Source of the DNA: Escherichia coli 042
GTDB taxonomy: Bacteria > Pseudomonadota > Gammaproteobacteria > Enterobacterales > Enterobacteriaceae
Assembly (NCBI RefSeq): GCF_000027125.1
Contig: NC_017626.1
Strand: one strand, 5' to 3'
Length of the DNA stretch: 64,000 nucleotides
Shown here: positions 4,811 through 5,620 of the stretch, one piece after another
Layout: each line of letters begins with the position of its first letter
How positions within the stretch are numbered: the stretch's first letter is position 1
Notes under the pieces: model-generated
Database searches by the model: none
What the model was told of the DNA's origin: nothing
Seen by the model: only the letters and a program-made list of their open reading frames with translations
Program-made: the position numbers and the translations under genes

Positions 4811-4837
4811 AAAAAGCTCGCCGAAGCGAGCTTTTTT
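4811..4837. terminator. Bidirectional rho-independent terminator between convergent ubiF and the tRNA operon
   Basis: GCTCGC-cgaa-GCGAGC hairpin flanked by an A-run on one side and a T-run on the other. Confidence 0.7.
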
Positions 4838-4841
4838 AATG

Positions 4842-4916
4842 TGGCTGGGGTACGAGGATTCGAACCTCGGAATGCCGGAATCAGAATCCGGTGCCTTACC
4901 GCTTGGCGATACCCCA
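4842..4916 (-). tRNA. glnX: tRNA-Gln (anticodon CUG)
   Basis: Reverse complement matches E. coli tRNA-Gln2; anticodon loop read directly; ends CCA. Confidence 0.93.
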
Positions 4917-4953
4917 ACTGGGTGCACTTACAAGGTAAGCGTCTTGAATAAAT

Positions 4954-5028
4954 TGGCTGGGGTACGAGGATTCGAACCTCGGAATGCCGGAATCAGAATC
5001 CGGTGCCTTACCGCTTGGCGATACCCCA
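4954..5028 (-). tRNA. glnV: tRNA-Gln (anticodon CUG)
   Basis: Identical copy of the preceding tRNA-Gln(CUG). Confidence 0.93.
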
Positions 5029-5076
5029 ACAAATTGGTTTGTGAATTTGCCGAACGCATTCGACACATTCAGAATT

Positions 5077-5153
5077 TGGTGGCTACGACGGGATTCGAAC
5101 CTGTGACCCCATCATTATGAGTGATGTGCTCTAACCAACTGAGCTACGTAGCC
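5077..5153 (-). tRNA. metU: tRNA-Met, elongator (anticodon CAU)
   Basis: Reverse complement matches elongator tRNA-Met GGCTACGTAGCTCAGTTGGTTAGAGCACATCACTCATAATGATGGGGTCACAGGTTCGAATCCCGTCGTAGCCACCA. Confidence 0.93.
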
Positions 5154-5168
5154 AGATTGTTTCTTCGA

Positions 5169-5243
5169 TGGCTGGGGTACCTGGATTCGAACCAGGGAAT
5201 GCCGGTATCAAAAACCGGTGCCTTACCGCTTGGCGATACCCCA
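5169..5243 (-). tRNA. glnW: tRNA-Gln (anticodon UUG)
   Basis: tRNA-Gln1-type sequence; anticodon loop reads UUG on the minus strand. Confidence 0.92.
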
Positions 5244-5277
5244 ATAACCGAGCGGTGAACCGCTTACTCGAAGAAGA

Positions 5278-5352
5278 TGGCTGGGGTACCTGGATTCGAA
5301 CCAGGGAATGCCGGTATCAAAAACCGGTGCCTTACCGCTTGGCGATACCCCA
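5278..5352 (-). tRNA. glnU: tRNA-Gln (anticodon UUG)
   Basis: Second identical tRNA-Gln(UUG) copy. Confidence 0.92.
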
Positions 5353-5375
5353 TCCGTACAACGCTTTCTGGTGAA

Positions 5376-5460
5376 TGGTGCGGGAGGCGAGACTTGAACT
5401 CGCACACCTTGCGGCGCCAGAACCTAAATCTGGTGCGTCTACCAATTTCGCCACTCCCGC
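5376..5460 (-). tRNA. leuW: tRNA-Leu (anticodon UAG), 85 nt with long variable arm
   Basis: Reverse complement matches GCGGGAGTGGCGAAATTGGTAGACGCACCAGATTTAGGTTCTGGCGCCGCAAGGTGTGCGAGTTCAAGTCTCGCCTCCCGCACCA. Confidence 0.92.
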
Positions 5461-5469
5461 AAAAAAAGA

Positions 5470-5546
5470 TGGTGGCTACGACGGGATTCGAACCTGTGAC
5501 CCCATCATTATGAGTGATGTGCTCTAACCAACTGAGCTACGTAGCC
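5470..5546 (-). tRNA. metT: tRNA-Met, elongator (anticodon CAU), first gene of the operon
   Basis: Identical to the metU copy; position immediately downstream of the promoter. Confidence 0.93.
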
Positions 5547-5584
5547 ATCTTTTTTTTTCGCGATACCTTATCCGGCGTTGCGGG

Positions 5585-5620
5585 GCGCATTATGCGTATA
5601 GAGCCTTGCAGCGTCAACCT
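5585..5620 (-). promoter_or_regulatory. Sigma-70 promoter of the metT tRNA operon with GC-rich discriminator
   Basis: Minus strand reads TTGACG (5612-5617), 17-nt spacer, CATAAT (5589-5594), then GCGCCCC about 35 nt upstream of metT; A/T-rich UP-like sequence further upstream. Confidence 0.65.

Follow-up and report, generated by a model that had tools for sequence, protein, structure and literature searches.

The seven-gene metT tRNA operon of Escherichia coli 042, its conserved promoter and early leader, and a terminator hairpin whose ubiF side looks Rho-sensitive in published K-12 data

Seven tRNA genes, on whose presence ARAGORN and Rfam agree, occupy positions 4842-5546 on the minus strand of the 64,000-nt stretch of Escherichia coli 042 DNA that we analysed (hereafter the window), and the region is almost certainly the E. 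coli metT tRNA operon (historically supB-E), transcribed as a single minus-strand unit; none of the evidence speaks against this identification. This operon is already known: its sequence dates from 1981, and publications describe how its transcript is processed and that it is essential. E. coli depends on it for all of its tRNA-Gln and elongator tRNA-Met, and its duplicated glutamine genes let suppressor alleles arise with normal decoding retained; in laboratory evolution, a mutation in the glnX anticodon reads through an amber codon (bioRxiv 10.1101/2022.12.20.521246). What the present analysis contributes is a count of natural copy-number variants of the repeats across 5,426 genomes, a warning, drawn from published data, that the ‘shared’ terminator seems to be sensitive to Rho on its ubiF side, and the finding that an early leader motif is deeply conserved and common to tyrT.

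In the direction of transcription the genes are Met(CAU), Leu(UAG), two Gln(UUG), Met(CAU) and two Gln(CUG), for which ARAGORN gave the anticodons CAT, TAG, TTG, TTG, CAT, CTG and CTG, and all seven scored 57.6-71.1 bits with Rfam RF00005 against a gathering score of 29 (E-values 6e-11 to 1e-14). By ARAGORN, Rfam and identity to K-12, they are metT, an elongator tRNA-Met(CAU) gene (5470-5546), leuW, tRNA-Leu(UAG) (5376-5460), glnU, tRNA-Gln(UUG) (5278-5352), glnW, tRNA-Gln(UUG) (5169-5243), metU, tRNA-Met(CAU) (5077-5153), glnV, tRNA-Gln(CUG) (4954-5028) and glnX, tRNA-Gln(CUG) (4842-4916), all on the minus strand. Three pairs are identical: metT and metU at a repeat spacing of 393 nt, glnU and glnW in a repeat unit of 109 nt, and glnV and glnX in a repeat unit of 112 nt. 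The glutamine tRNAs with UUG and those with CUG are distinguished by 7 positions. The mature sequences of all seven equal the K-12 genes (b0673-b0664) base for base and their order is unchanged. Assignment of the two CAT genes to initiator tRNA-Met or to tRNA-Ile(CAU) was considered and is ruled out, as their sequences are those of K-12 metT and metU. A sequence-only reading of the region had proposed these gene identities, with their order, strand and duplicate structure, and every one of them was borne out by ARAGORN, Rfam and the K-12 comparison, the cloverleaves being recovered on the minus strand (ARAGORN, Rfam RF00005) where it had placed the genes. The span that it had marked, 4811-5620, begins exactly at the low end of the terminator hairpin and reaches 3 nt past the -35 hexamer in the upstream direction.

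Comparison with the K-12 metT operon showed the same mature tRNAs, order and strand, the same ubiF and asnB neighbours, and identical promoter hexamers, discriminator and terminator hairpin, with about 99 % identity over the promoter, leader, spacers and terminator. The operon is approached by the convergent ubiF (3513-4688, plus strand; NCBIfam NF005951, 711.6 bits, and annotation of matching genomes) and has asnB upstream, in the arrangement miaB-ubiF / asnB of K-12; NCBIfam equivalogs were matched for UbiF, AsnB and MiaB, and the annotations of matching genomes agree. In and around the operon, strand 042 and K-12 differ at a few non-coding places: a C-to-T change at 5251, between glnU and glnW, three substitutions and one extra base in the metU-glnV spacer, several changes in the REP-like region downstream of ubiF, and a segment of 425 bp (5804-6228) that lies upstream of the promoter and that K-12 does not have. 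The small ORF at 5881-6141 matched no NCBIfam family.

The operon had been expected to be a core feature, and it is: 5,356 of 5,426 complete E. coli genomes carry it at a coverage of at least 80 %. Its internal duplications had been put forward as potential recombination substrates, and the copy-number variants that we found, both within E. coli and between genera, support this. A single Gln(CUG) gene is present in 152 of the 5,426 complete E. coli genomes and three or more in 28, and a single Gln(UUG) gene was counted in 71 by a junction query limited to at most 27 nt of metU. In other genera, Superficieibacter has three Gln(CUG) genes, Enterobacter sp. BIGb0383 has one Gln(UUG) gene, and Acerihabitans and Photorhabdus have one Gln(CUG) gene each. 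We take the paired copies to have come from tandem duplication and still to be gained and lost through unequal recombination.

Upstream of metT, the -35 hexamer TTGACG (5612-5617) is separated by a 17-nt spacer from the -10 hexamer CATAAT (5589-5594), which is followed by the GC-rich discriminator GCGCCCC (5582-5588), all on the minus strand; these elements lie where the sequence-only reading had put them. TTGACG/CATAAT was the sole promoter-like match on the minus strand in 4300-6300, with 10/12 positions matching, and the promoter scan by itself is at chance level (2 sites observed versus 2.2 expected in shuffles). The promoter call is convincing because of its position and its conservation across taxa, and not because of the scan alone: TTGAC is unchanged across 10 taxa and GCATAAT across 10 Enterobacterales, and the GCATAAT -10 region is retained in Haemophilus, Rodentibacter and Vibrio. 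Immediately preceding the -35 hexamer, an A/T-rich block (5618-5640, minus strand; GCAATTTTCCTTGAAAAAGAGG) is a candidate UP element on sequence and conservation, and probably is one, its proximal part being like the UP-element consensus AAAAAARNR. The AAAAA run and the TTC of this block are invariant in the alignment of 10 Enterobacterales, upstream A-runs are retained in Pasteurellaceae and Vibrio, and the same 10-taxon Enterobacterales alignment has conserved blocks at about -90 and -70. Scanning -200 to +40 with a strict and a relaxed Fis consensus gave no match.

Judged by its sequence, this promoter is most likely under ppGpp/DksA and growth-rate control. We read it as a stringent-type promoter because the GC-rich discriminator GCGCCCCGC, through which such control would act, is the same as that of tyrT and resembles that of argX; it is also similar to those of leuQ, valU and rrnB P1. 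The argX promoter, with its metT-like discriminator, is reported to be inhibited by ppGpp (PMC5137449), and a literature search for ppGpp, DksA, Fis or stringent control of the metT promoter found nothing specific to metT. The metT spacer is 17 nt and that of rrn P1 is 16 nt, so the kinetics of the metT promoter need not equal those of rrn P1.

Transcription probably starts at about G 5581, which would give a 5′ leader of 35 nt (5547-5581, minus strand; 33 nt in K-12) with a conserved GCAACGCC(G)GATAAGGT motif and an A-run. We infer this start because the leader of the tyrT promoter, 41 nt long, has the same register. The position agrees with an in-vitro precursor used by Kime et al., which begins CGCAACGCCGATAAGGTA (PMC3985628), and with a ~125-nt 5′-unprocessed metT species in rnpA49 cells (PMC2241853); the K-12 Cappable-seq supplement has no start-site entry near 69716x. 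The -10 hexamer, the discriminator and the early leader are invariant in the 10 Enterobacterales and recognisable in Pasteurellaceae and Vibrio, and the block from -10 to about +17 reads CATAAT-GCGCCCCGC-N3/4-CCGATAAGG, with the form CATAATACGCCCCGCAAAGCCGATATGG in Pasteurellaceae and CATAATGCGCSCCG...CGATAAGG in Vibrio. A nearly identical block is present in the unrelated tyrT promoter and part of it in argX, but eight other stable-RNA promoters that were checked lack it. Such recurrence might mark a cis-element, so far uncharacterised, that some tRNA promoters carry in their initially transcribed region, an idea that we put forward as an outside chance, and such an element could act, for example, on promoter escape, pausing or leader RNA. 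Compared with K-12, the leader in the window has one extra A in its A-run and one extra G (5572/5573), the latter private to the window and inside the otherwise invariant leader motif; if the cis-element is real, this G would be a natural mutant of it.

In K-12, northern analysis revealed a full-length transcript of the seven tRNAs with leader and terminator. RNase E is mainly responsible for taking off the terminator, and RNase P acts afterwards, separating the first five tRNAs (PMC2241853); an RNase E cut site lies 2 nt downstream of metU (PMC4191395), and deletion of the transcription unit succeeded only when a plasmid complemented it (PMC11480407). Single-unit transcription is likewise predicted for strain 042 from a promoter and terminator identical to those of K-12 and from a promoter scan that gave no promoter-like site on the minus strand within the operon. 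In the mechanism that we propose, the sigma-70 promoter, with its UP-like A/T block, TTGACG, 17-nt spacer, CATAAT and GCGCCCC, would direct initiation at about G 5581, and RNA polymerase would then cross the 35-nt leader and the seven tRNA genes and halt at the hairpin and U-tract at 4831-4811. As in K-12, RNase E would take off the terminator and cut the A/U-rich spacers after metU and glnV, after which RNase P would cut the upstream tRNAs free at their 5′ ends, with exonucleases trimming the 3′ ends to the encoded CCA. The output would be every tRNA-Gln, every elongator tRNA-Met and the only tRNA-Leu(UAG) of the cell, and the operon is essential because it is the sole supply of these tRNAs. 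That the region is not one operon, and that internal promoters drive the distal metU-glnV-glnX separately, seems very improbable to us. These three genes do resemble a duplication module of their own, and a metU-glnV-glnX RNA species exists in rne-1 cells (PMC2241853); however, that species is made by an RNase P cut at the 5′ end of metU and is gone in rnpA49, and the full-length transcript with leader and terminator was observed (PMC2241853). Moreover, the spacer upstream of metU is only 15 nt, and the lack of a minus-strand promoter-like site within the operon argues against separate initiation too.

At the other end of this single transcription unit, the terminator scan and folding identified a Rho-independent terminator (4811-4831, minus strand) composed of GCTCGC, the loop TTCG, GCGAGC and TTTTT, with GCTTTTCT following at 4810-4803. 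Counted with its A-U pairs, the hairpin extends over 4836-4811 as AAAAAGCTCGC-TTCG-GCGAGCTTTTT, then GCTTTTCT; on the minus strand it thus has a GC stem of 6 bp (11 bp including the A-U pairs) and a TTCG loop, followed by TTTTTGCTTTT. Folding predicts -17.9 kcal/mol for the minus strand and -17.4 kcal/mol for the plus strand. A terminator had been claimed at just this end of the operon, and the hairpin found there has the same sequence in K-12, where it was probed as the Rho-independent terminator of the metT operon (PMC2241853). Across genera the stem shows one compensatory pair, in Enterobacter sp. Ag1, and two G-U changes, and the A-tract upstream of the stem is kept in 7 taxa. Between glnX and the terminator lies the A/U-rich, single-stranded 3′ trailer CAUUAAAAAA (4832-4841, minus strand; Term-seq and conservation), which contains the A-tract that makes the hairpin symmetric and is probably the RNase E entry site for terminator removal. 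In K-12, a Term-seq 3′ end at 696428(-) corresponds to window position 4840, 2 nt beyond the CCA of glnX (PMC7815308 supplement 1).

Repeat analysis of the ubiF 3′ untranslated region (4689-4810) found a pair of tandem REP-like units of 35 nt each (4726-4760 and 4761-4795), so described from their resemblance to the REP consensus. The region folds at -37.1 kcal/mol (z = -3.85, plus strand), and its two REP-like hairpins separate the ubiF stop codon from the terminator hairpin. The sequence-only reading had called this hairpin a shared bidirectional terminator, and the structural part of that claim stands: a symmetric hairpin flanked by AAAAAA and TTTTT is situated between ubiF (+) and glnX (-). 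That the hairpin at 4811-4836 is truly bidirectional, and also ends the convergent ubiF transcript intrinsically without Rho, is a reading towards which we are rather sceptical. The predicted energies are near-equal in the two directions, and the U-tail/hairpin score, computed with a formula attributed to d’Aubenton-Carafa 1990, is positive both ways (23.7 versus 19.8). On the plus strand the stem and the following TTTTTTAA end 5 nt before glnX, so that ubiF transcripts would halt just before becoming antisense to the tRNAs, and the terminator scan met no further T-tailed hairpin on the way there from the ubiF stop codon. However, the scan did not call a plus-strand terminator, its longest-stem rule consuming the T-run; the plus-strand tail in Enterobacter sp. 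Ag1 is TTTT only; and the A-tract is retained in Enterobacter sp. BIGb0383, in which a co-directional gene now lies between the operon and ubiF.

Published K-12 plus-strand and 3′-end data for the ubiF side (Adams et al. 2021) bear on the same question. Plus-strand coverage falls from 53 to 16 reads across 800-nt windows that flank a peak inside the hairpin, as a bidirectional terminator would have it (PMC7815308), but with bicyclomycin the drop vanishes (44 to 54 reads; Rho score 4.07, p = 5.8e-5; PMC7815308 supplement 2), on which ground the authors class the region as a Rho termination region, and no plus-strand Term-seq 3′ end is listed in the U-tract (PMC7815308). These data thus point to Rho having at least a part in stopping transcription on the ubiF side, and an intrinsic role of the hairpin there is plausible from its symmetry. 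Our tentative preference, held with a little less than even confidence, is that Rho mainly stops ubiF transcripts within the untranslated, REP-containing region, that the hairpin serves ubiF only as a barrier or 3′-end protector, and that the A-tract is chiefly an RNase E entry site. Besides the bicyclomycin-sensitive drop, with its peak coordinate inside the hairpin, this is consistent with about 120 nt of untranslated sequence and two REP-like hairpins ahead of the hairpin, with the persistence of the A-tract without an adjacent convergent gene, and with the removal of the terminator by RNase E in K-12 (PMC2241853); the dominant glnX 3′ end, in CA|UUAAAAAA and 2 nt past the CCA (PMC7815308), mirrors the RNase E cut 2 nt after metU (PMC4191395). 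Against it, the reads are few (16 to 54) and come from coarse 800-nt windows on the strand opposite extremely abundant tRNAs, so that the signal could be mimicked by bleed-through between strands or by antisense transcription that bicyclomycin induces independently of ubiF. In addition, either role of the A-tract leaves room for the other. Neither ubiF, metT nor glnX is named in the SMRT-Cappable-seq supplements.

Among known systems, the closest parallel to the metT promoter is that of tyrT (tyrT-tyrV), a classical stringently controlled tRNA promoter whose regulation has been measured. Both have GATGCGCCCCGC / AATGCGCCCCGC and then CCGATAAGG 3-4 nt on, and they share the GC-rich discriminator sequence and the start-site register, whereas tyrT has TTTACA, TATGAT and a 16-nt spacer in place of the TTGACG, CATAAT and 17 nt of metT, and the two upstream regions are unrelated. 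In processing, metT resembles secG-leuU and other tRNA units with a Rho-independent terminator, in which removal by RNase E is needed for efficient RNase P action; the secG-leuU terminator is also removed by RNase G, whereas removal from metT appeared RNase G-independent (PMC2241853). The clusters of Pasteurellaceae (Met-Leu-Gln-Gln), Vibrio (repeated Met-Leu-Gln) and Aeromonas have the Met-Leu(UAG)-Gln(UUG) core in common with metT, and those of Pasteurellaceae and Vibrionaceae have a recognisably similar promoter, whereas the second module, Met-Gln(CUG)-Gln(CUG), occurs only in Enterobacterales among the loci compared.

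Seven tRNA genes were placed on the minus strand within 4842-5546 by ARAGORN: metT, Met(CAU), at 5546-5470; leuW, Leu(UAG), at 5460-5376; glnU, Gln(UUG), at 5352-5278; glnW, Gln(UUG), at 5243-5169; metU, Met(CAU), at 5153-5077; glnV, Gln(CUG), at 5028-4954; and glnX, Gln(CUG), at 4916-4842. The Rfam tRNA model recovered the same genes at 57.6-71.1 bits (gathering score 29), and the gene set is the canonical one with wild-type anticodons. The flanking ORFs are NCBIfam equivalogs of UbiF (3513-4688, plus strand), AsnB (6359-8023, minus strand) and MiaB (1943-3367, minus strand), and the operon is present at ≥80 % coverage in 5,356 of 5,426 complete E. 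coli genomes. The feature is a known one, the metT operon of K-12 as carried by a different E. coli lineage. The genes, promoter and hairpin listed by a sequence-only reading were all found where it had placed them (ARAGORN, Rfam and promoter scan), which confirms its observation and supports its interpretation, with a bidirectional terminator and stringent control being plausible, unproven parts.

That reading also regarded the internal duplications as recombination substrates. Both Met genes are identical, as are both Gln(UUG) and both Gln(CUG) genes, the two Gln types differing at 7 positions, and a repeat finder gave start-to-start spacings of 112 nt (glnX-glnV), 109 nt (glnW-glnU) and 393 nt (metU-metT). 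We searched the 5,426 complete genomes with junction-specific queries that can align over their full length only after loss or gain of a repeat unit. A single Gln(CUG) gene was found in 152 genomes, for example EPEC E2348/69, where the annotation agrees, and ETEC4075; a single Gln(UUG) gene in 71, for example ST131 strain 751; and three or more Gln(CUG) genes in 28, including K-12 GM4792 and Rosetta2-DE3. These variants bear the suggestion out, and ∼4.6 % of genomes deviate from the 2+2 arrangement, some of which could be repeat assembly errors. Beyond E. coli, species-representative genomes were scanned with the leuW anticodon arm, which picked up loci in many Proteobacteria, and tRNA prediction on the gammaproteobacterial ones recovered the seven-gene arrangement in Escherichia albertii, two Citrobacter and Enterobacter sp. 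Ag1, eight genes with three Gln-CUG in Superficieibacter, six with one Gln-UUG in Enterobacter sp. BIGb0383, six with one Gln-CUG in Acerihabitans and Photorhabdus, Met-Leu-Gln-Gln in Pasteurellaceae, and reiterated Met-Leu-Gln units in Vibrio. The leuW-glnU spacer of E. albertii is 104 nt (8783-8886 of its locus) compared with 23; the first bases of the extra 81 nt, TGGGG, resemble a tRNA-Gln 5′ end and the rest diverges, so that the stretch may be the remnant of a decayed copy or an insertion.

Within 4300-6300 the promoter scan gave a sole minus-strand site, TTGACG (5617-5612), 17 nt and CATAAT (5594-5589), matching at 10 of 12 positions and directly followed by GCGCCCC. Although the scan was not above chance (2 sites observed, 2.2 expected), position and conservation leave little doubt that this site is the operon promoter. 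In an alignment of the 160 nt before the first tRNA from ten Enterobacterales, the invariant parts are TTGAC, an AAAAA run adjoining the −35 hexamer, and GCATAATGCGCCCCGCAAC.CC..GAT.AAGGT, which extends without a break from −12 to about +20; the −35/−10 spacer is free to vary. Haemophilus and Rodentibacter (CAGCATAATACGCCCCGCAAAGCCGATATGG) recognisably share this architecture, as does Vibrio (CGCATAATGCGCSCCG...CGATAAGGCAAC). The GCGCCCC-G register is the same at the tyrT promoter, which has a 41-nt leader. Together with the start of the in vitro precursor of Kime et al. at CGCAACGCCGATAAGGTA (PMC3985628) and a 5′-unprocessed metT species of ∼125 nt (PMC2241853), this register places the inferred transcription start at G 5581. 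The discriminator is the same as that of tyrT and resembles those of leuQ, valU, rrnB P1 and argX, so that a 'stringent-type' promoter is plausible by resemblance; a literature search found no direct measurement of stringent control at the metT promoter, and a Fis consensus scan of it was negative.

At the other end, the hairpin AAAAAGCTCGC-TTCG-GCGAGCTTTTT at 4836-4811 is a textbook intrinsic terminator for the tRNA operon, identical to that probed in K-12 (PMC2241853). Its stem is kept across genera, with one compensatory pair (GCCCGC/GCGGGC, Enterobacter sp. Ag1) and two G-U changes. It was also proposed to terminate the convergent ubiF transcript, and this is plausible: the hairpin is symmetric, its energy and tail scores differ little between the two directions, no other T-tailed hairpin follows ubiF, and the plus-strand T-run ends 5 nt short of glnX. 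However, the ubiF stop codon is 122 nt away from it, with two tandem REP-like units in between. A plus-strand 'Rho termination region', scored with 800-nt windows, is also listed by Adams et al., and its peak coordinate, K-12 696419, maps within the hairpin at window 4831 (PMC7815308). Plus-strand reads there went from 53 to 16 without bicyclomycin and from 44 to 54 with it (Rho score 4.07, p = 5.8e-5; PMC7815308), a bicyclomycin-sensitive drop in coverage. Moreover, Enterobacter sp. BIGb0383 retains the A-tract though a co-directional membrane-protein gene separates operon from ubiF, and the A-tract is also the A/U-rich segment at which cleavage removes the terminator. Our reading, tentative because the reads are few and lie opposite highly abundant RNAs, is that plus-strand transcription stops around the hairpin with Rho contributing, and that the A-tract serves at least one further function, that of an RNase E entry site. 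The REP-like units of the ubiF 3′ untranslated region (4689-4810) are 35 nt each in the same orientation (4726-4760 and 4761-4795, 86 % alike) and are accompanied by a further partial palindrome; the K-12 record lists no repeat feature for the equivalent segment, and Citrobacter and Enterobacter sp. Ag1 have other palindromes at this position.

In K-12, northern blots with nine probes showed a full-length RNA of leader, seven tRNAs and Rho-independent terminator; terminator removal and separation of the last three tRNAs are mainly the work of RNase E, and the first five are separated by RNase P, which is slowed when the terminator is retained (PMC2241853). An RNase E cut 2 nt downstream of metU is seen both in vitro and in vivo (PMC4191395). 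By Term-seq the dominant 3′ end of glnX, K-12 696428(−) (PMC7815308), is window 4840, 2 nt past CCA at the start of UUAAAAAA, and no Term-seq end is listed in the terminator U-tract (PMC7815308), as expected if the terminator is removed quickly. Deletion of the operon required a complementing plasmid, since every Gln and elongator Met tRNA gene and the sole Leu(UAG) gene lie within it (PMC11480407). One 'complete' assembly, E. coli CEA224S (NZ_CP166080.1), misses the whole block from metT +1 to the glnX CCA (junction of AAAAAAAAGA with CATTAAAAAAGCTCGC, 2540-2560 of its locus), with promoter, leader, terminator and the lysT tRNA operon intact; since the operon is essential, the gap most likely arose in assembly, or the block has moved to an element missing from the assembly.

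The −10 to +17 block of the metT promoter (5565-5594) is almost the same at tyrT (ATGCGCCCCGC, then CCGATAAGG; about 1640-1680 of its K-12 locus, minus strand), and the argX promoter resembles it (CCCCGCAACGGCGCTAAG; about 3340-3376 of its locus). Pasteurellaceae and Vibrio keep the motif ahead of their Met-Leu-Gln cluster; it is absent from thrU, leuQ, glyW, lysT, alaW, valU and rrnB P1/P2. That the motif is a functional element of its own has a low to modest probability. The leader A-run and GAT just 5′ of metT (5547-5560, minus strand) are complementary to the metT-leuW spacer TCTTTTTTT (5461-5469, minus strand); the predicted pairing of AAAAGATGG with CCATCTTTT might lengthen the acceptor stem of the precursor or compete with it. 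Enterobacteriaceae retain both runs at varying lengths, and no compensatory change was seen.

In the wider window, plus-strand GC skew is positive in seven of eight 8-kb bins, which marks the plus strand as the leading one, so that replication meets transcription of the highly expressed metT operon head-on; in the 24-32 kb bin the skew is negative and GC is 55.6 %. Above Rfam gathering scores are naRNA4, a REP-derived nucleoid-associated RNA, at 52420-52490 (−), 52515-52585 (−) and 56913-56983 (+), and ES036 at 8305-8347 (+), just past asnB. A 425-bp segment (5804-6228) between the metT promoter region and asnB is found in 985 of 5,426 genomes and is missing in K-12, its deletion there being flanked by short TGGCC repeats. 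An ORF of this region (5881-6318, plus strand) corresponds to a 145-aa hypothetical protein with a signal-peptide-like N-terminus (WP_000943484.1), without match in an NCBIfam search; the gene is intact in strain 4/4 and frameshifted in the window by a 1-nt deletion near 6126.

The closest relative, strain C4, is 99.8 % identical over 4600-5900; the window differs from it by a C-to-T change in the glnU-glnW spacer (5251) and an extra leader G at 5572/5573. This G (minus strand, leader +9/+10) interrupts the deeply conserved motif, turning GCCGATAAGG into GCCGGATAAGG; none of the 5,424 complete E. coli genomes with a match carries it (the best, over a 110-nt span, reaches 99.1 %), nor does any of 8 E. 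coli loci inspected directly, and either a private variant or an error of sequencing may account for it. K-12 is about 97 % identical over the wider neighbourhood. Aligned over 4680-5810, it has identical promoter hexamers, spacer, discriminator and terminator; the few changes lie in the leader, in two spacers and in the REP-like region. All seven mature tRNA sequences are the same, and the operons of the window and K-12 differ in non-coding bases only.
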